Shown here piece after piece: positions 29,640 through 40,938 of a DNA stretch of 64,000 nt. The notes below the pieces were generated by a model. That model was not told the origin of the DNA. It ran no database searches and saw only the letters and a program-made list of their open reading frames with translations. The translations under genes were made by a program, and so were the position numbers. Numbering within the stretch: the first letter of the stretch is position 1; the number at the start of each line of letters is the position of its first letter. The stretch lies in NCBI RefSeq assembly GCF_024223415.1, contig NZ_CP100500.1. One strand, given 5' to 3'. Source of the DNA: Escherichia coli. Lineage in GTDB: Bacteria; Pseudomonadota; Gammaproteobacteria; Enterobacterales; Enterobacteriaceae.

Positions 29640-29660
29640 TCAGTAAGACGTTTTGTGAGA

Positions 29661-29685
29661 AGGGCCGCGAAAGCGGCCCTTTAGA
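29661..29685 (+). terminator. tktA terminator hairpin
   Basis: gggccgcgaaagcggccc followed by ttt; the same hairpin recurs at 29838-29855. Confidence 0.5.
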
Positions 29686-29689
29686 TTAT

Positions 29690-29835
<146 letters not shown>

Positions 29836-29858
29836 GGGCCGCGAAAGCGGCCCTTTTT

Positions 29859-30767
29859 TTACTTAGTAGAGATAAACGGAACTGTGCTGCCGGGGATCAT
29901 GGTATCGGGCAGTTTACCGTCCCAACGTTCGGCAGTGGTGAGGGCTACAAGTCCGGGATTATCCCGCAGAGCTTCACCGCGCAGGCGGATTGCTTCTGCT
30001 TCAGCCGCACTTTTTAAACGAATAGTTTCAGCCTCTGCCGCGCCTCTTACGCGAATAGTTTCCGCTTCTGCTTTGGCTGCCGCCAGTTTACTGTCTGCTT
30101 CTGCCTGGGCCTGAGTTACCGCTATTTGCGCCTGGATTTTCTCTGTTTCCAGATTTTGCTTACGCGTGGCAATGGCGACTTCTGCTTTCATTCGGTCTTC
30201 AATCGACTTTTCATAAGCGTCAGAAAAATCAATATTTTCAATCTGGACCCCGTCAATTACCACTGGCCCAACAACGGCTTTGCGCATGGCATTTTGCAGA
30301 TCCTGAACCAGTTTTGTACGATCCTGTACAGCGCTGATGGCGGTATATTGGCCGAAAACGTTCTCCAGTTGAGTTGGCAACTGACGGACAATCAGACGAT
30401 CTTTTAATGCTTCAATGGTGTTGTAGGTGGTATAAACCGCGCCTGCTTCTGAAGGTTTAATGTGGAAGCTGACTGATACTGTCATTTGTGCCGGTTGCTG
30501 GTCGCGGCTGTAGGCCTGTAATCCCTGATAGACCACAGCCTGATTACGCGTGGAAATTTTCTCCACGCTTTCCATAAACGGGATCTTAAAACCCAGACCC
30601 GGCTCGGCAACTTTTACGATTTTTCCGTAGCGCAGCAAAATGCCGCGTTCACCTTCATTAACGGTGTAATACGAGAGAAATGGCAGCACAACCACGGCAA
30701 GCACGCCGATGGCGATAGCAAGAGATTTTTGTGGGCGAAATGAGGTTAATGAAACAGGTGCTTTCAT
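29859..30767 (-). CDS. SPFH/band-7 (stomatin/prohibitin-like) membrane protein with a C-terminal Ala/Glu-rich repeat
   Basis: N-terminal TM segment SLAIAIGVLAVVVLPFLSYY, SPFH-like core, then AAAKAEAETIRVRGAAEAETIRLKSAAEAEAIRLRGEA. Confidence 0.65.
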   Translation of the reverse strand: MKAPVSLTSFRPQKSLAIAIGVLAVVVLPFLSYYTVNEGERGILLRYGKIVKVAEPGLGFKIPFMESVEKISTRNQAVVYQGLQAYSRDQQPAQMTVSVSFHIKPSEAGAVYTTYNTIEALKDRLIVRQLPTQLENVFGQYTAISAVQDRTKLVQDLQNAMRKAVVGPVVIDGVQIENIDFSDAYEKSIEDRMKAEVAIATRKQNLETEKIQAQIAVTQAQAEADSKLAAAKAEAETIRVRGAAEAETIRLKSAAEAEAIRLRGEALRDNPGLVALTTAERWDGKLPDTMIPGSTVPFISTK

Positions 30768-31144
30768 GACAATCTTCCTTGAGTAAAGTGTGGGAATATG
30801 TCACATGAGATGAGGAGAAAACAGCCGACAGGTGAGAATTCAGAATCTATAAAGGGGTATAGCGAAAAAACATTGCATTAGGAAAGTATGTTTTCGAACA
30901 TTCAATAAATAAATAGAGATATTCATCACAAATACAATAACAAACAAAATGTTGATTTTGTGATAAGCATAACAAATACAAAGTTGACTTTAAAAATATC
31001 AATTTCATATTGTTGTTATTTAAGGTTTTATTATTTTGGTTTATGGGGTTTTTCTTCTCGCGTACCCAATTGCTTTCATTAAACCGCACGAGTATTTTAT
31101 TTTTACCGCCGGACGGTACCCTAAAAATAAAATAAGGATAATTT

Positions 31145-31588
31145 ATGCGGCTTAGTGATTATTTTCCAGAATCATCAATCTCAGTTATACATTCAGCAAA
31201 AGATTGGCAGGAAGCTATCGATTTCTCGATGGTATCATTGCTGGATAAAAACTATATCAGCGAGAATTACATTCAGGCAATTAAAGATTCCACCATTAAC
31301 AATGGCCCTTATTATATTCTCGCACCAGGCGTGGCAATGCCTCATGCGCGACCGGAATGTGGGGCGCTTAAAACCGGGATGTCTTTGACATTACTTGAAC
31401 AAGGTGTTTATTTTCCGGGGAATGACGAACCAATTAAATTACTCATCGGACTCTCTGCTACCGATGCCGATTCGCACATTGGCGCTATTCAGGCGTTAAG
31501 TGAATTACTGTGCGAAGAAGAAATACTCGAACAACTCTTAACAGCATCATCAGAAAAACAATTAGCGGACATTATCAGCCGCGGATAA
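31145..31588 (+). CDS. cmtB: mannitol-family PTS enzyme IIA (cryptic cmt operon)
   Basis: 147-aa ORF MRLSDYFPESSISVIHSAKDWQEAIDFSMVSLLDKNYISENYIQ... Confidence 0.88.
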   Translation: MRLSDYFPESSISVIHSAKDWQEAIDFSMVSLLDKNYISENYIQAIKDSTINNGPYYILAPGVAMPHARPECGALKTGMSLTLLEQGVYFPGNDEPIKLLIGLSATDADSHIGAIQALSELLCEEEILEQLLTASSEKQLADIISRG

Positions 31589-31615
31589 TTACTCTCTCCT
31601 CTACAGGATAATATT

Positions 31616-33004
31616 ATGGAAAACAAGTCTGCTCGTGCAAAGGTCCAGGCTTTTGGGGGCTTTTTGACTGCAATGGTCATCCCCAATATTGGTGCTTTTA
31701 TTGCCTGGGGTTTTATTACTGCGTTATTTATTCCCACCGGTTGGCTGCCTAACGAACATTTCGCCAAAATTGTCGGCCCGATGATTACCTATTTATTGCC
31801 CGTGATGATTGGTTCTACCGGTGGTCATCTGGTCGGCGGTAAACGCGGCGCGGTCATGGGCGGAATAGGTACTATTGGTGTGATCGTCGGCGCAGAGATC
31901 CCGATGTTCCTTGGCTCAATGATTATGGGGCCGCTCGGTGGTCTGGTCATAAAATATGTTGATAAGGCACTGGAAAAACGCATACCTGCCGGTTTTGAGA
32001 TGGTTATCAATAACTTCTCATTAGGTATCGCGGGGATGCTCCTTTGCCTGCTGGGTTTTGAAGTGATCGGCCCGGCGGTGTTAATTGCCAATACTTTCGT
32101 CAAAGAGTGTATTGAGGCGCTGGTACATGCGGGTTATCTGCCTCTGCTGTCAGTCATCAATGAACCGGCGAAAGTGCTTTTCCTTAATAATGCGATCGAT
32201 CAGGGCGTCTATTATCCGCTGGGAATGCAACAGGCTTCGGTTAACGGTAAATCCATCTTCTTTATGGTGGCCTCTAACCCAGGTCCGGGCCTGGGGCTGC
32301 TGCTGGCGTTTACCTTGTTTGGTAAAGGGATGAGTAAACGTTCTGCGCCCGGGGCGATGATTATTCACTTCCTCGGTGGGATCCACGAACTGTATTTCCC
32401 ATATGTGCTGATGAAGCCGCTGACTATTATTGCCATGATTGCGGGCGGTATGTCTGGCACCTGGATGTTTAACTTACTGGACGGTGGTCTGGTGGCTGGC
32501 CCAAGTCCGGGGTCTATCTTTGCTTACCTGGCGCTGACGCCGAAAGGTTCGTTCCTGGCGACAATTGCCGGTGTTACGGTAGGTACCCTGGTGTCCTTTG
32601 CTATCACTTCGCTGATACTGAAGATGGAAAAAACGGTGGAAACGGAGAGCGAAGATGAGTTTGCTCAGTCAGCCAATGCGGTTAAGGCGATGAAACAAGA
32701 GGGTGCATTCTCGTTAAGCAGGGTTAAGCGTATCGCCTTTGTTTGCGATGCGGGGATGGGCTCCAGTGCGATGGGCGCGACCACCTTCCGTAAACGCCTG
32801 GAAAAAGCGGGGCTGGCAATTGAAGTAAAACATTACGCCATAGAAAACGTGCCTGCGGATGCGGATATCGTCGTTACTCATGCCAGTCTGGAAGGGCGCG
32901 TGAAACGTGTGACGGATAAACCACTGATATTGATTAATAACTATATTGGCGATCCAAAACTCGACACTTTATTTAATCAATTAACCGCCGAACATAAACA
33001 CTGA
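31616..33004 (+). CDS. cmtA: mannitol-family PTS enzyme IICB (cryptic)
   Basis: 462-aa ORF MENKSARAKVQAFGGFLTAMVIPNIGAFIAWGFITALFIPTGW... Confidence 0.9.
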   Translation: MENKSARAKVQAFGGFLTAMVIPNIGAFIAWGFITALFIPTGWLPNEHFAKIVGPMITYLLPVMIGSTGGHLVGGKRGAVMGGIGTIGVIVGAEIPMFLGSMIMGPLGGLVIKYVDKALEKRIPAGFEMVINNFSLGIAGMLLCLLGFEVIGPAVLIANTFVKECIEALVHAGYLPLLSVINEPAKVLFLNNAIDQGVYYPLGMQQASVNGKSIFFMVASNPGPGLGLLLAFTLFGKGMSKRSAPGAMIIHFLGGIHELYFPYVLMKPLTIIAMIAGGMSGTWMFNLLDGGLVAGPSPGSIFAYLALTPKGSFLATIAGVTVGTLVSFAITSLILKMEKTVETESEDEFAQSANAVKAMKQEGAFSLSRVKRIAFVCDAGMGSSAMGATTFRKRLEKAGLAIEVKHYAIENVPADADIVVTHASLEGRVKRVTDKPLILINNYIGDPKLDTLFNQLTAEHKH

Positions 33005-35279: not shown

Positions 35280-35789
35280 ATGGCGACGCTGACAGAAGAT
35301 GATGTGCTTGAGCAACTGGATGCACAGGACAATTTATTTTCATTTATGAAAACTGCGCATTCTATTTTGCTCCAGGGGATACGCCAGTTTCTGCCGTCGC
35401 TGTTTGTCGATAACGATGAAGAGATCGTCGAATATGCAGTGAAGCCGTTACTCGCCCAAAGCGGCCCGCTTGACGATATTGATGTCGCACTGCGTTTGAT
35501 TTATGCGCTGGGGAAAATGGATAAATGGCTGTACGCCGATATCACGCATTTTTCCCTGTTCTGGCATTACCTGAACGAACAGGATGAAGCGCCCGGATTT
35601 GCCGATGACATGACCTGGGATTTTATCAGCAACGTCAATAGCATAACCTGCAATGCGACGCTCTATGACGCGTTGAAAGCGATGAAGTTCGCCGATTTCG
35701 CCGTCTGGTCAGAGGCGCGTTTTAGCGGAATGGTCAAAACGGCGCTGACGCTGGCAGTAACGACCACCTTAAAGGAATTAACGCCGTGA
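35280..35789 (+). CDS. yggD: MtlR-like transcriptional regulator YggD
   Basis: 169-aa ORF MATLTEDDVLEQLDAQDNLFSFMKTAHSILLQGIRQF... Confidence 0.85.
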   Translation: MATLTEDDVLEQLDAQDNLFSFMKTAHSILLQGIRQFLPSLFVDNDEEIVEYAVKPLLAQSGPLDDIDVALRLIYALGKMDKWLYADITHFSLFWHYLNEQDEAPGFADDMTWDFISNVNSITCNATLYDALKAMKFADFAVWSEARFSGMVKTALTLAVTTTLKELTP

Positions 35790-36499
35790 AAATTGAATTA
35801 ACGGTGAATGGGCTGAACGTGCAAGCGCAGTACCATGATGAAGAGATAGAACGCGTGCATAAACCGTTGCTGCGTATGCTGGCGGCCTTACAGACGGTAA
35901 ATCCGCAGCGCCGAACCGTGGTTTTTCTTTGCGCTCCGCCGGGGACGGGGAAATCTACCCTAACCACCTTCTGGGAATACCTCGCGCAACAAGACCCGGA
36001 ACTGCCCGCTATTCAGACGCTGCCGATGGATGGTTTTCACCATTACAATAGCTGGCTGGATGCGCATCAATTGCGCCCCTTCAAAGGCGCACCAGATACA
36101 TTCGATGTGGCGAAACTGGCGGAAAATCTGCGCCAGGTAGTGGAAGGGGATTGTACGTGGCCGCAATACGATCGACAAAAGCATGATCCGGTTGAAGATG
36201 CGTTGCACGTTACCGCACCACTCGTCATCGTCGAAGGAAACTGGTTGTTGCTGGACGACGAGAAGTGGTGCCAGCTTGCGCAATTTTGTGATTTCTCGAT
36301 CTTTATCAACGCGCCAGCTACTGCGTTGCGGGAACGACTGGTAGGGCGCAAGCTGGCGGGAGGGGTATCGCTGGCAGATGCAGAAGCTTTTTATGACCGT
36401 ACCGACGGGCCGAATGTTCGCCGGGTGCTGGAAGAGAGTCTGCCTGCAAATTTGACTTTAATGATGACCGCTACGGGTGAATATCGTCTGGTGGATTAA
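35786..36499 (+). CDS. yggC: P-loop nucleoside/pantothenate kinase-like protein YggC
   Basis: 237-aa ORF with Walker A PPGTGKST; MKIELTVNGLNVQAQYHDEEIERVHKPLLRML... Confidence 0.88.
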   Translation: MKIELTVNGLNVQAQYHDEEIERVHKPLLRMLAALQTVNPQRRTVVFLCAPPGTGKSTLTTFWEYLAQQDPELPAIQTLPMDGFHHYNSWLDAHQLRPFKGAPDTFDVAKLAENLRQVVEGDCTWPQYDRQKHDPVEDALHVTAPLVIVEGNWLLLDDEKWCQLAQFCDFSIFINAPATALRERLVGRKLAGGVSLADAEAFYDRTDGPNVRRVLEESLPANLTLMMTATGEYRLVD

Positions 36500-37148
36500 C
36501 GTTCCTGATTAGACCATCTTCCAGTCGCACCACACGAGAGAAATGACGCCGGGTAAATGCGGCGTCATGACTGATTGCTACGACGCTCGTGCCTCGCTGG
36601 CGGCACTTCTCCAGCCAGCTTTCAAACACGCTCAACCAATTTTCGTCAAAATCCCGACTCGGCTCGTCCAGCAGCAATAGTGGCGGAGAGAGTGCTTCCA
36701 GGCAGGCGACGGCGACCATCCGTCGCTGCGCACTATGCAGATCCAACGGGTGCGCGTTGGCAGTGTCTGCTAACTGACAACATTGCAGGGCAGCATGGGT
36801 ACGTTGAGTGATTTCATCCGCCGGGCATTTTTGCAGTTTCAAACCAAATGCGATCTCGTCAGCGACGGTGCTGTGAAAAAGTTGGTTTTCCGCTTCCTGA
36901 AACAGTACGCCAATCTTTGCCGCGCGCTGGCGGTTTTTCAGGTTTTTCATCGCCTGTTGTTGCAGCATAACCGTACCGGCTGTGGGCGTAAGAAGACCTG
37001 CCATTACTCGTAACAGCGTCGATTTCCCTGCGCCATTGTCGCCGGTCAGCGCCAACCATTCACCTTGTTTGAGTTGCAGAGAAATGTCGCAAAGACAATC
37101 CGTTGCCGCGCCAGGCCAGCGATAAGATATCTGATTTAACGTTAACAT
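36471..37148 (-). CDS. ABC/ECF-type ATPase subunit with degenerate signature and Walker B motifs (EcfA'-like)
   Basis: MLTLNQISYRW...; Walker A GDNGAGKST, signature position reads LHSAQRR instead of LSGGQ, Walker B LLLLDEPS; its 3' end overlaps the yggC 3' end convergently. Confidence 0.7.
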   Translation of the reverse strand: MLTLNQISYRWPGAATDCLCDISLQLKQGEWLALTGDNGAGKSTLLRVMAGLLTPTAGTVMLQQQAMKNLKNRQRAAKIGVLFQEAENQLFHSTVADEIAFGLKLQKCPADEITQRTHAALQCCQLADTANAHPLDLHSAQRRMVAVACLEALSPPLLLLDEPSRDFDENWLSVFESWLEKCRQRGTSVVAISHDAAFTRRHFSRVVRLEDGLIRNVNPPDDIHP

Positions 37149-37825
37149 AGTGGCTGGAGCGCTCCGTTTTGCAATTGCCACGCTTGCTGGCAGTAGTTCA
37201 GGAAAGGTGTGCGATGACGTTCAAAAAGAATAATCAGCGAACCACGTTCAAACGCCCAGTGTTGTAAGCGCTGCAACAGCATTTCGCTGGCCTGCGGCGT
37301 CAGGCGGCTAAAGGCTTCATCAAGAATTAATAGCTTTGGCTGCATCGCGATGGCGCAGGCGATGACCACGCGCTGTGTCTCTCCACCGGAGAGTGTTGCC
37401 GGGTGACGATGGCGCAACGGCTGGCACTCGGTCAGAGTCAGGGCGGCATCAATCCGAGCCATAATCTCTGCTTCAGCAAGACACAGATTTTCTGGCCCAA
37501 AGGCAACTTCTTCTTCCACGCTAAAGGTACAGCCGGAGAGCTGCAAATAGGGCGATTGCTGGACGAGCTGGATGGTGGCGGATTGTTCATTAAGCGGGAG
37601 ATGCCCAATGGGCGTACCGAGGAGCGTCCCCGTGCCTGTTATCTCTCCTGGCAGAAAGTCCGGATACCAGCCCGCCATCAGCTGTGCCAGCGTACTTTTG
37701 CCACTGCCGTTGTCACCAAAGATGGCGACCATCCCCGGTTTGACATAGTGAAAGTCATAACAGAACGGAGGATGTGTTGAGTGTGTCGGGCAATAACGGA
37801 ACTGTTCTAACGTAACCATATCCAC
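37142..37825 (-). CDS. ABC/ECF-type ATPase subunit (EcfA-like)
   Basis: Walker A GDNGSGKST, signature LSGGETQR, Walker B LLILDEA; start overlaps the preceding gene. Confidence 0.75.
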   Translation of the reverse strand: MDMVTLEQFRYCPTHSTHPPFCYDFHYVKPGMVAIFGDNGSGKSTLAQLMAGWYPDFLPGEITGTGTLLGTPIGHLPLNEQSATIQLVQQSPYLQLSGCTFSVEEEVAFGPENLCLAEAEIMARIDAALTLTECQPLRHRHPATLSGGETQRVVIACAIAMQPKLLILDEAFSRLTPQASEMLLQRLQHWAFERGSLIILFERHRTPFLNYCQQAWQLQNGALQPLC

Positions 37826-38514
37826 GCTCCGAATTCTGTCAGCATCAGCAAGATCATGGTGTAACGCGCTACGCGTTGTAGGGTGCTATCGGCTGGTGCC
37901 CACAACGTTGTTCGTCGATTGTGGATCCGAAATGCCCGCATATCCAGCGCCGCACCACGGACAGCAAGATCGTTTAGCGCATTGTGTGTTAGCGGAATAA
38001 TTAACGCGGGCATCGCACGTAAACGCTGATACCAGCCCTCATCCAGCGGCACGCCGCGGGCACGCTGCGCTTCATGAATAATCGCTAATTGCCGTTTTAA
38101 CTGCTCAACGACCAATAACGGCCCGGCAAACAGATAAGCGACGCCTGGCGGCAGGCGAGAAGCAAACAGAGCGCGGATAAAACATTGCACGGGGACGTAC
38201 TGCATCCACAACTGTGAGGTTGAAACAATCGCCAGAATCCGCAACCAGAGCGTAATAGCATGCGTCCAACGCTCCGGCGAACGCGGCGTGCCGCTTAGCC
38301 ATTCTGTTAGCCAGCCACCGTGTACCAGCCACAGCCCGGCTCCCAGCGAGAACATCAGCCAGACGACATATTTTGCCCGCCGCCGCGTGGCCTTTAGCGC
38401 AATAAGGCAGAAAAAGGTCGCCGCGCTATAGATCGGCAAAATGGTCTGCGCGGGCAGGATAAGCGTGGTGCAGGCCGCCAATGCCCACAGTGTTAATGAG
38501 GTAAATGGATGCAT
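37807..38514 (-). CDS. ECF transporter transmembrane T component (CbiQ/EcfT family)
   Basis: 235-aa polytopic membrane ORF with C-terminal Arg-rich coupling-helix region (...AIIHEAQRARGVPLDEGWYQRLRAMP...). Confidence 0.65.
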   Translation of the reverse strand: MHPFTSLTLWALAACTTLILPAQTILPIYSAATFFCLIALKATRRRAKYVVWLMFSLGAGLWLVHGGWLTEWLSGTPRSPERWTHAITLWLRILAIVSTSQLWMQYVPVQCFIRALFASRLPPGVAYLFAGPLLVVEQLKRQLAIIHEAQRARGVPLDEGWYQRLRAMPALIIPLTHNALNDLAVRGAALDMRAFRIHNRRTTLWAPADSTLQRVARYTMILLMLTEFGAWIWLR

Positions 38515-39093
38515 TTAGCGCACGGCAGCCATTGCCGGAAAATGGCGCGTGGTGCGAATCGGCAGCTGGCGCAGTAAAAGCCAGACAATCACCGCTGTAA
38601 GAGTTTTATCGACCAGGTTCGCGCCTATCACCGTAATCGCCACCGACTCCACCAGGTTTTGCCCCATCGAGTGCATCCAGGCAACGAACAAATCGGCTCC
38701 GCTACCGGTGACACCGCCGAACAGCGCAGTACGCAGCGGTACAGCGACGACCGTTACCGCAAGCGTAATAATCACGCCGCTGACAACGACTTTTGGCAGG
38801 GTGCGGAACCAACCCGCTCGCGCCAGCCAACCGGCGACCAGGCCGATGACCATCGCCACGGGCGCAAATGCGGCGGCGATCGGGTCGGTCAGCAATCCCC
38901 AGAGTAAATTGGTCAGTAAACCGGTCAGCATCCCGATCACCGGACCAAGCAGTACCGCGCTAATAAGTGTGCCGATGGAGTCGAGAAATATAGGTAATTT
39001 GACCATGCTGGCCAGTTGCCCGCCGATCATATTGATGGCGATAGATATAACGATTAACACCAGCGCCTGACTGGAAAAGTGGCTACGCGCCAT
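38515..39093 (-). CDS. ECF transporter substrate-specific S component (small integral membrane protein)
   Basis: 192-aa hydrophobic ORF MARSHFSSQALVLIVISIAINMIGGQLASMVKLPIFLDSIGTLISAVLLGP...; GAGAGG ribosome-binding site 7 nt upstream of this Met; stop abuts the T-component start. Confidence 0.6.
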   Translation of the reverse strand: MARSHFSSQALVLIVISIAINMIGGQLASMVKLPIFLDSIGTLISAVLLGPVIGMLTGLLTNLLWGLLTDPIAAAFAPVAMVIGLVAGWLARAGWFRTLPKVVVSGVIITLAVTVVAVPLRTALFGGVTGSGADLFVAWMHSMGQNLVESVAITVIGANLVDKTLTAVIVWLLLRQLPIRTTRHFPAMAAVR

Positions 39094-39115
39094 AAGAAAA
39101 CCTCTCTGAAAGTAG

Positions 39116-39547
39116 TTATTTAACGGGGGAAATATGCAACTCGTCGTAACCAGAAAGCGCGCAAGGTTGGCGGCTAAACGCCAGTTCCTCAAGGCTACCG
39201 ATCACCAGTTCAAGCGTGGTCCGCACGGTACAGCCGGGCATCATATGACCGCCAAGCATCGTGCCGTGTGGATCGGAAACGCAGAGATGAAGATGCTCAC
39301 CACTCTGTTCCAACGTGCCGTTTAGTGAGATCACTTCGAATGTACCGTTCAGGAGCGTGGTGCCTTCTTGCCCGGCATAGCGCAAGGCGATGTCAGTCAG
39401 GCTACCGGTACAGCCTGCAATCCAGGCGGCATGAAGTTGCTGCTGCTGTGCAAAAGCGTGTAGCTGGGAAAAAACTTCCTGCCCGGGGAGGAGGCGCAGT
39501 GCGTAAAAGCGTGCGGAGGAAGAATATGGGTAGGGCAATGTCATCAT
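39116..39547 (-). CDS. PPC/DUF296-domain protein (AT-hook-less PPC DNA-binding-like), first gene of the ECF-type operon
   Basis: 143-aa ORF MMTLPYPYSSSARFYALRLLPGQEVFSQLHAFAQQQQLHAAWIAGCTGSLTD...; family assignment from memory of DUF296 proteins. Confidence 0.5.
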   Translation of the reverse strand: MMTLPYPYSSSARFYALRLLPGQEVFSQLHAFAQQQQLHAAWIAGCTGSLTDIALRYAGQEGTTLLNGTFEVISLNGTLEQSGEHLHLCVSDPHGTMLGGHMMPGCTVRTTLELVIGSLEELAFSRQPCALSGYDELHISPVK

Positions 39548-39918
39548 TGGAGTACTCCGAAACTCGGACGTATTGCGGATAATATCGACGCTGCATCAGT
39601 CATATTCTGATATAAGTCAGGGTTTGTGACGGCACAACGAAAAGATTTTGCTACGCTTATTCGTGATTCTGCAAAGTGGAATAAATTCCACAGGGGCGGG
39701 GCTGAAAACGTGACGTAAGTCAGATAATTGTCTTCTTTGACTGGACAATCATTCCTTTTATTCCACGTTTCGCTTATCCTAGCTGAAGCGTTTCAGTCGA
39801 TTAAATGTTCGACAATTAACCAATCAGTCGCAGTTTGCGACAGGTAAGGTTTCCCCGGACGATTTGCTGGATTACTCTGTCTGGCAAATTTGCTCAGGGA
39901 AAACCTTGCAGGAGATCT

Positions 39919-40938
39919 ATGACCGTACGCGTAGCGATAAATGGCTTCGGTCGCATCGGGCGTAATGTGGTTCGTGCTTTGTATGAATCCGGACGCCGGG
40001 CGGAAATTACCGTGGTGGCAATCAACGAACTGGCGGATGCTGCGGGCATGGCGCATTTGTTGAAATATGACACCAGCCATGGCCGTTTTGCATGGGAAGT
40101 ACGACAGGAACGCGATCAACTTTTTGTTGGTGATGACGCCATCCGCGTATTGCATGAACGTTCACTGCAATCGCTCCCCTGGCGTGAACTTGGCGTTGAT
40201 GTAGTCCTCGACTGCACCGGCGTATATGGCTCCCGCGAGCATGGCGAAGCGCATATTGCCGCCGGGGCCAAAAAAGTGCTCTTTTCACATCCTGGCAGTA
40301 ACGATCTCGACGCGACCGTTGTTTACGGCGTCAATCAGGATCAACTTCGTGCGGAACACCGCATCGTTTCTAACGCTTCCTGTACCACGAATTGCATAAT
40401 TCCCGTCATCAAATTGTTAGATGATGCGTACGGTATTGAGTCCGGCACTGTGACCACAATTCACTCCGCCATGCACGATCAACAGGTTATTGATGCATAC
40501 CATCCTGACCTGCGTCGCACCCGGGCAGCCAGCCAGTCGATCATTCCGGTCGATACTAAACTGGCCGCCGGTATCACACGATTTTTTCCGCAATTTAACG
40601 ATCGCTTTGAAGCGATTGCGGTACGTGTGCCAACCATAAATGTGACGGCAATCGATTTAAGCGTGACGGTGAAGAAACCTGTAAAAGCCAATGAAGTCAA
40701 CCTGTTGCTGCAAAAAGCAGCACAAGGTGCATTTCATGGTATAGTTGACTATACGGAATTGCCGTTGGTCTCTGTAGATTTTAACCACGATCCGCACAGT
40801 GCCATTGTCGATGGCACCCAAACCCGGGTCAGTGGCGCACACCTGATCAAAACGTTGGTCTGGTGCGATAACGAATGGGGCTTTGCTAACCGAATGCTCG
40901 ACACGACGTTAGCTATGGCTACTGTTGCTTTCAGGTAA
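39919..40938 (+). CDS. epd: D-erythrose-4-phosphate dehydrogenase
   Basis: [55 protein letters not shown]...; internal Met chosen. Confidence 0.95.

Follow-up and report, generated by a model that had tools for sequence, protein, structure and literature searches.

Do the two ATPases encoded beside epd in Escherichia coli power their transporter from two equivalent ATP sites or from one? The question is raised by a five-gene cassette on the minus strand of a 64,000-nucleotide stretch of E. coli DNA (contig NZ_CP100500.1 of assembly GCF_024223415.1; the whole stretch is referred to here as the window). The cassette is flanked by epd on one side and by a yggC-like nucleoside/nucleotide kinase gene on the other, and it encodes a PCC/PPC (DUF296) domain protein, the S and T components of a vitamin-type energy-coupling factor (ECF) transporter and two ATP-binding cassette (ABC) ATPases, here called A and A', in the order PCC-S-T-A-A'. 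A preliminary description, made from the letters alone, had correctly placed A' at positions 36471 to 37148, which is a 225-amino-acid open reading frame (ORF) that coincides with a coding sequence (CDS) of the Prokaryotic Genome Annotation Pipeline (PGAP). It had also described A' as the defective partner of a canonical ATPase. From the motifs of both proteins and their relatives, we consider it likely that A and A' form an asymmetric dimer with one main engine, although the roles of the two subunits differ from those first proposed.

The deviation of A' is confined to its signature. At the LSGGQ position, A' reads L137-H-S-A-Q-R-R143, which changes S to H, G to S, and G to A. The segment was aligned without gaps to LSGGQKQ or LSGGQQR of solved ABC proteins by HMMER and to 28 reference nucleotide-binding domains (NBDs) by MAFFT, and it is flanked by the usual R-x-V-A-x-A. 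The DNA reading and these alignments confirmed the degenerate signature LHSAQRR that had been noticed earlier. The accompanying claim, that the DEPS of A' marks a degenerate Walker B motif, was rejected. Walker B is defined as hhhhDE, most often followed by P-[ST], and the Glu within it serves as the catalytic base. The motif LLLLD161-E162-PS of A' is canonical on this definition, and across 78 aligned relatives (alignment A2) the second NBD had an invariant D-E and a P that was at least 90% conserved. The other motifs of A' were also canonical, namely Walker A (GDNGAGKST, invariant in the 11-sequence alignment A1), the Q-loop (LFQEA), the D-loop (SRDFD168) and the H-loop (I-S-H194-D, with His invariant in A1 and A2). 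Since A' otherwise has the fold and the motifs of the superfamily, we count it as an ABC NBD with a degenerate C-loop and not as a non-member.

The partner, A, was canonical as previously described in its signature (LSGGETQ) and Walker B motif (LLILD167-E168-AF, with the catalytic Glu kept), but its H-loop and D-loop deviate. Walker A (GDNGSGKST) and the Q-loop were standard as well, and LSGGE[TSAM]Q was found in 119 of 120 A homologues. The D-loop S-R-L-T has no Asp, and the H-loop region reads L-F-E200-R201-H202, with E-R in place of the switch His. This replacement of [ST]-H by E-R was found in A of E. coli, Salmonella, Klebsiella, Atlantibacter, Serratia and Proteus and in natural fusions, with the forms FERH, FERN, FERT, FERA, LERN and LERT across orthologues. 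F-E-R-x was present in about 110 of the 120 homologues, where x was N in 45, H in 27 and R in 14, and also Q, D, K, T, S and others. Since the residue after FER varies almost freely, the E-R pair is the conserved element and H202 of E. coli is incidental. Arg201 was placed at the switch-His position in MAFFT and hidden Markov model (HMM) alignments, and many fused relatives have E-H at the same spot, which supports the Arg register. In addition, in the AlphaFold model of a natural A-A' fusion (P0122), Arg210 of NBD1 matches His479 of NBD2, counted from the conserved Gly before the strand, eight residues on. Whether Arg201 or Glu200 is taken as the equivalent residue, the A family lacks a conserved switch histidine.

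In a head-to-tail ABC dimer, one NBD contributes Walker A, Walker B, the Q-loop and the H-loop to each ATP site, and its partner contributes the signature. Because of this geometry, the A' signature and the A H-loop fall in the same composite site, the one on the P-loop of A (site 1). The canonical signature of A completes the site on the P-loop of A' (site 2). Judged by motif, site 1 is thus degenerate and site 2 is consensus, and the co-location of the deviations of A' and A is the hallmark of a degenerate-site heterodimer. The asymmetric dimer with one degenerate site that had been proposed from A' is supported by conservation and by the co-located defect of the partner. In contrast, A' does not appear to be the crippled subunit; it is probably the catalytic subunit, and A probably hosts the non-consensus site.

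The direction of this asymmetry was also found in more distant relatives. A HMMER search of a 1.8-billion-protein library returned fused two-NBD ECF-type ATPases as the nearest non-orthologues, and 127 of these fused tandem proteins (within P0126-P0270) were aligned to one HMM. The NBD2 signature was non-canonical in 95 proteins (LSRGQ, LSKGE, LTRGE and others) and canonical in 32. Among the 105 proteins in which the NBD1 switch His is present, 73 had a non-canonical and 32 a canonical NBD2 signature, and all 22 proteins without the NBD1 His also had a degenerate NBD2 signature, with no canonical case (Fisher p=8e-4). Several NBD1 domains had DQ, DD or DA for DE, whereas NBD2 was never without D-E or His. 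The opposite signature polarity was found in 2 of 111 fused ATPases by a cruder regular-expression parse. The invariant columns of alignment A2 were Walker A, Q, D-E and His of NBD2 and the S and G of the NBD1 signature, which are exactly the NBD2-P-loop/NBD1-signature site. These comparisons mark E. coli A/A' as the extreme, two-polypeptide case of an asymmetry whose direction is widely shared by ECF-type tandem ATPases.

Several observations weigh against this interpretation. A keeps Glu168, although classical degenerate sites lose this residue more often than any other. Some residual hydrolysis at site 1 is possible, since Ala140 of A' still offers its backbone NH for contact with the gamma-phosphate and Gly is retained there in distant relatives (LHAGQ). 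Some pairwise HMMER alignments to PDB chains put Glu200 at the switch-His position or introduce a gap that brings H202 there. The 127 fused proteins were chosen by similarity to A' and may lean slightly to degenerate signatures. In an alternative reading, both sites are competent, with His138 standing in for the signature Ser and E-R for the switch His, so that the unusual motifs would be a lineage flavour without asymmetry. A does keep Walker A, the Q-loop and the catalytic Glu, and the residues that take the place of the usual ones (His or Asn; E-R) are invariant in their turn, which suggests a positive role over mere loss. However, in the PCC-S-T-A-A' family and the 127 fused relatives, the deviations fall always on one composite site and never on the other, and some of the fused relatives also lose the NBD1 catalytic Glu, which is the pattern expected for relaxed catalytic constraint on one site. 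In addition, His-to-Arg changes at the switch position inactivate MalK (H192R) and HisP (H211R). We consider two competent sites unlikely, and the asymmetric dimer is preferred.

The composite-site argument would be void if A' were a non-transport regulatory ABC ATPase, or if A and A' formed separate homodimers with other partners. Both ATPases are short (225 amino acids) and are without the C-terminal extension that adds dimer contacts in group II ECF transporters, which is compatible with such an arrangement, but A and A' overlap by 7 nucleotides in one operon with S and T, and A-A' or T-A-A' fusions occur in several metagenomic lineages. The A-A' fusion P0122 (503 amino acids) has the order A then A', and two T-A-A' fusions (P0135 and P0149) are 650-680 amino acids long. 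All three keep the motif asymmetry, with LERN or LERT in NBD1 and LNSAE or LHAGQ in NBD2. The AlphaFold model of P0122 was a confident two-NBD unit (pLDDT 90.7, pTM 0.88). It superposed best on the ATP-bound fused tandem NBD 8wdb_D (TM 0.75), whereas 0.67-0.69 was obtained with that protein in its apo and substrate-bound states. Separate or regulatory ATPases are therefore very improbable, and the overlapping genes in one operon, the natural fusions and the tandem model support A and A' pairing 1:1 as a heterodimer.

The preliminary description had named strain-specific decay as the condition that would overturn its proposal, and the odd signature was examined in orthologues. Of the 120 closest 90%-identity clusters of A' homologues, 116 were parsable, and all 116 had LH[TSA]AQR, covering Escherichia, Citrobacter, Salmonella, Klebsiella, Atlantibacter and Leclercia. 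Remoter A' proteins of Serratia (58% identity) and Proteus (55%) and the metagenomic A-A' fusion (42%) had LHAGQRR, and two metagenomic T-A-A' triple fusions had LNSAERR. All A' relatives looked at thus keep LH[STA][AG]Q or, in distant forms, LNSAE, and the canonical signature was never found. In the 11-sequence alignment, which extends down to about 42-46% identity, 11 of 16 positions were invariant in the segment H133-PLDL-xxxx-RRMVA-A148, compared with 64 of 225 in the whole of A', which ranks the signature segment with the best conserved stretches of the protein. The ratios of nonsynonymous to synonymous substitution rates (dN/dS; Nei-Gojobori) between E. coli and Salmonella or Klebsiella were 0.08-0.12 for A' and 0.05-0.10 for A, and were about 0.1 for all five cassette genes, with a similar value of 0.10 for the neighbouring yggC; because dS is saturated, these values are rough.

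The distribution of the cassette was examined in orthologous loci recovered by exact-protein look-ups. The cassette is found at the same epd-adjacent site in four genera (E. coli, Salmonella, Atlantibacter and Klebsiella) and in other genomic contexts in Serratia, Proteus and metagenomes. Among 5426 complete E. coli genomes, 3330 carry it, 3318 of these with most of the query, and it is a presence/absence polymorphism within the species, with K-12 among the strains without it. Strain-specific decay, in which the motif changes would be mutations in an unselected gene of a dying cassette, is scarcely credible: the cassette is missing from K-12 and about 39% of complete E. coli genomes and a few database clusters are shortened (e.g., P0011, 194 amino acids, and P0017, 179 amino acids), but the ORFs are intact with low dN/dS in all five genes, the motifs are the same across genera and families, gene order and the epd-adjacent site are kept in Salmonella, Klebsiella and Atlantibacter, the full-length 225-amino-acid clusters have thousands of members versus tens to about a hundred in the shortened ones, and the orthologues without canonical LSGGQ refute it. 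The A' signature is best regarded as a selected feature and not as decay. The earlier proposal of a functional, selected module is upheld by the orthologue conservation, the purifying selection, the A-A' fusions and the complementary deviation in the partner.

The K-12 junction was also compared with the window. In K-12 (NC_000913.3 3073913-3074046; L092 3913-4046, compared with window 36430-39698), epd is separated from yggC by just 284 bp. At this junction, identity between K-12 and the window was only 78% over the final ~255 bp of yggC, whereas the flanks showed 97-99%. Such divergence points to a long-standing two-haplotype polymorphism or to replacement by recombination, and less to a clean deletion.

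We also examined the class of transporter to which the cassette belongs. The S component matched Pfam ECF_trnsprt and the T component, more weakly, Pfam CbiQ; T carries two X-R-G coupling-helix motifs. Both ATPases gave TIGR04520, TIGR04521 and cbiO as their best NCBIfam matches, which places them in the CbiO/EcfA clade. With an S component, a T component and two ATPases of this clade, the cassette has the architecture of an ECF-type ABC transporter. The best NCBIfam matches of A', ECF_ATPase_2 and ECF_ATPase_1, were both under cut-off. Against the equivalog cut-offs of 315 and 330 bits for TIGR04520 and TIGR04521, A' scored 149.6 and 145.8 and A scored 120.3 and 106.4, and the two proteins are thus classed as relatives, not equivalogs, of group II EcfA1/EcfA2. 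The S component scored 134.9 bits against the NCBIfam CD3073-family S component, under the cut-off of 180. E. coli A and A' stop near position 231 of 279 in the EcfA profile and are without the C-terminal extension of canonical EcfA/EcfA'. The Proteus A and A' orthologues (281 and 273 amino acids; L083 5172-6822) do have C-terminal extensions.

The genes of the cassette are closely packed. The S and T genes are adjacent, T and A overlap by 13 nucleotides, and the overlap of A with A' is that given above. Window bases 36300-39700 are 100% identical to E. coli SCU-316, in which the identical A' ORF is annotated by PGAP as "ABC transporter ATP-binding protein." The 3' ends of A' and the yggC-like kinase gene converge in a 29-bp overlap (window 36471-36499), and this overlap recurs in Salmonella (L089, 5659-5690) and Atlantibacter (L090, 5641-5684). 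The coordinates of the features are listed in the table.

Table. Positions of the cassette genes, their motifs and flanking genes in the window, and of PCC genes and ATPase fusions in other loci (locus label given where the position is not in the window)
Feature	Position	Strand	Basis or remark
epd	from ~39.9 kb	+	flank of cassette
PCC/PPC (DUF296) domain protein	39116-39547	-	first cassette gene; Pfam PCC, E=4e-28
ECF S component, 192 aa	38515-39093	-	Pfam ECF_trnsprt, PF12822, E=8e-8
ECF T component, 235 aa	37807-38514	-	Pfam CbiQ, PF02361, E=2.7e-4 (weak); PGAP name
T coupling-helix X-R-G motif QRARGV	38050-38067	-	read in sequence
T coupling-helix X-R-G motif AVRGAA	37948-37965	-	read in sequence
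ATPase A, 225 aa	37142-37819	-	ORF, PGAP, NCBIfam
A signature LSGGETQ	37373-37393	-	canonical; completes consensus site on A' P-loop
A Walker B LLILDEAF and D-loop SRLT	37298-37333	-	catalytic Glu168 kept; D-loop without Asp
A H-loop region LFERH	37214-37228	-	E-R in place of switch His
ATPase A', 225 aa	36471-37148	-	ORF; PGAP CDS WP_000956883.1
A' Walker A GDNGAGKST	37017-37043	-	canonical; invariant in alignment A1
A' signature LHSAQRR	36720-36740	-	at LSGGQ position; DNA ctg cat agt gcg cag cga cgg
A' Walker B LLLLDEPS	36657-36680	-	canonical; catalytic Glu162 present; alignment
A' H-loop ISHD	36564-36575	-	canonical; His194 invariant in alignments A1 and A2
yggC-like nucleoside/nucleotide kinase gene	35786-36499	+	flank of cassette
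PCC gene, L082	3606-4025		
PCC gene, L083	3387-3815		
PCC gene, L084	919-1383		
PCC gene, L087	4732-5190		
PCC gene, L089-L091			
A-A' fusion P0122, L084	2681-4192		metagenomic
T-A-A' fusion P0135, L085	6001-8052		metagenomic
T-A-A' fusion P0149, L087	6001-7959		metagenomic

A working cycle can be proposed from these features. A and A' would pair obligately and 1:1 as the heterodimeric motor that powers a dedicated ECF importer, S-T-A-A', with the PCC-domain gene ahead. Site 2 would be hydrolytic, combining Walker A, the Q-loop, Glu162 and His194 of A' with the LSGGE of A. Site 1, built from the A P-loop, the A' LHSAQ and the A E-R that takes the place of the switch His, would be degenerate. 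ATP binding at site 1 is probable because A has an intact Walker A, Q-loop and Walker B, including its Mg-binding Asp, and we infer that site 1 still binds ATP and hydrolyses it slowly or not at all. The ATP at site 1 may then act as a long-lived latch that keeps the dimer together. The power stroke would come from turnover at site 2 only; passed on through the EcfT coupling helices, it would topple or release the S component and cost roughly one ATP in each cycle. The motif identities and their conservation, the paired or fused architecture, the purifying selection and the co-occurrence of the two defects were observed directly, whereas the idle site 1 and the expenditure of one ATP per cycle are inferred from sequence.

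The proposed motor was compared with three groups of known systems. Group II ECF transporters (e.g., L. brevis 4HUQ and L. delbrueckii ECF-FolT2 5JSZ) share the four-part architecture of the cassette, in which two different ATPases are combined with an S component and with a T component that bears two X-R-G motifs, and their ATPases were the best PDB matches among single-NBD chains for A and A'. Cryo-electron microscopy of ECF-FolT2 under turnover found ATP kept on EcfA and ADP on EcfA', an asymmetry that parallels the one proposed for A/A' (PMC10368641). Each of the two group II ATPases contacts ATP through an LSGGQ signature (PMC10368641), whereas the cassette has one non-consensus site by sequence. 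The cassette also differs from group II in its dedicated S gene in the operon, which is group I-like, in ATPases that are ~55 amino acids shorter at the C terminus and have NCBIfam scores under half of the cut-offs, and in the attached PCC gene.

The closest HMMER relatives after the orthologues were the fused tandem-NBD group I ECF-type ATPases (YkoD-like, about 450-620 amino acids), which have the same polarity of asymmetry. Their NBD1 H-loop is often E-H or without His. In contrast to these proteins, the E. coli NBDs are on separate polypeptides, the signature is LH[STA][AG]Q versus LS[RK]G[QE], and the NBD1 His is always lost. The heterodimeric exporters TM287/288, TAP1/2, CFTR and MsRv1273c/72c have, like A/A', one consensus and one degenerate site, with a deviant signature in one NBD and a deviant H-loop in the other (PMC3971661, PMC12038006). 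However, they are type IV transporters with the transmembrane domain fused to the NBD, and their degenerate site is usually without the Walker B Glu, which A of the ECF importer keeps. Degenerate ATP sites have been discussed for exporters in reviews (PMC3971661). In full-text literature searches, we found no paper on a degenerate site in ECF importers, nor on the PCC-S-T-A-A' cassette. Searches on HtsTUV/QrtTUVW and YkoD likewise found nothing on the cassette, and the matches for DUF296 were all plant AHL papers. The design with one degenerate site is thus well known in ABC exporters, and its ECF-importer variant is undescribed in the literature found.

In addition to the ATPases, the PCC gene showed a close association with the cassette. 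It lies directly ahead of S-T-A-A' in all contexts examined but one metagenomic lineage (L085/L086), including unrelated neighbourhoods. Because the linkage persists in unrelated neighbourhoods, the PCC protein is probably a functional part of the transporter system. Structures of PCC orthologues (2HX0 and 2NMU, from structural genomics) are labelled only "putative DNA-binding protein." For the S component, no solved relative was detected by sequence search. No Rfam match with E<=1 to a riboswitch or other RNA element was found in 35500-40200, and promoter and terminator scans gave background levels only. A profile search of genome contigs with the A' alignment found, among the matches listed, only unrelated ABC ATPases of <=38% identity, with the generic Walker A NGAGKSTLL.

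Two further observations were made in the window. A reading of the locus as a defence system was discarded, since PADLOC gave generic P-loop matches only. Between tktA and cmtB, a segment of ~1.4 kb (29641-31066) is low in guanine plus cytosine (0.436 in 30001-32000), where K-12 has ~235 bp. This segment contains an ORF of 302 amino acids (29859-30767, minus strand) that by eye resembles an SPFH/band-7 (HflC-like) membrane protein.

Degenerate ATP sites figure centrally in work on CFTR, TAP, TM287/288 and other ABC exporters. As to how many ATP molecules an ECF transporter hydrolyses in a cycle, and in what order, the sole hint found was the asymmetric nucleotide occupancy described above (PMC10368641). 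We tentatively suggest, as a conjecture that may well fail, that heteromeric and fused ECF motors are hard-wired with a universal polarity, in which the NBD1-P-loop site is a non-hydrolytic latch and the NBD2-P-loop site the sole engine. The Enterobacterales PCC-S-T-A-A' cassette would then be the extreme case, having lost both the signature and the switch His, and a genetically tractable model in E. coli and Salmonella for the amount of ATP spent per toppling cycle, with the PCC protein as a functional partner, e.g., in substrate processing or regulation. Altogether, the analysis flags A', and not A, as the probable catalytic subunit of an uncharacterised cassette conserved across Enterobacterales. 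An ECF motor of E. coli and Salmonella with sequence-distinct sites would make the ATP stoichiometry of the transport cycle approachable by single-site mutants.

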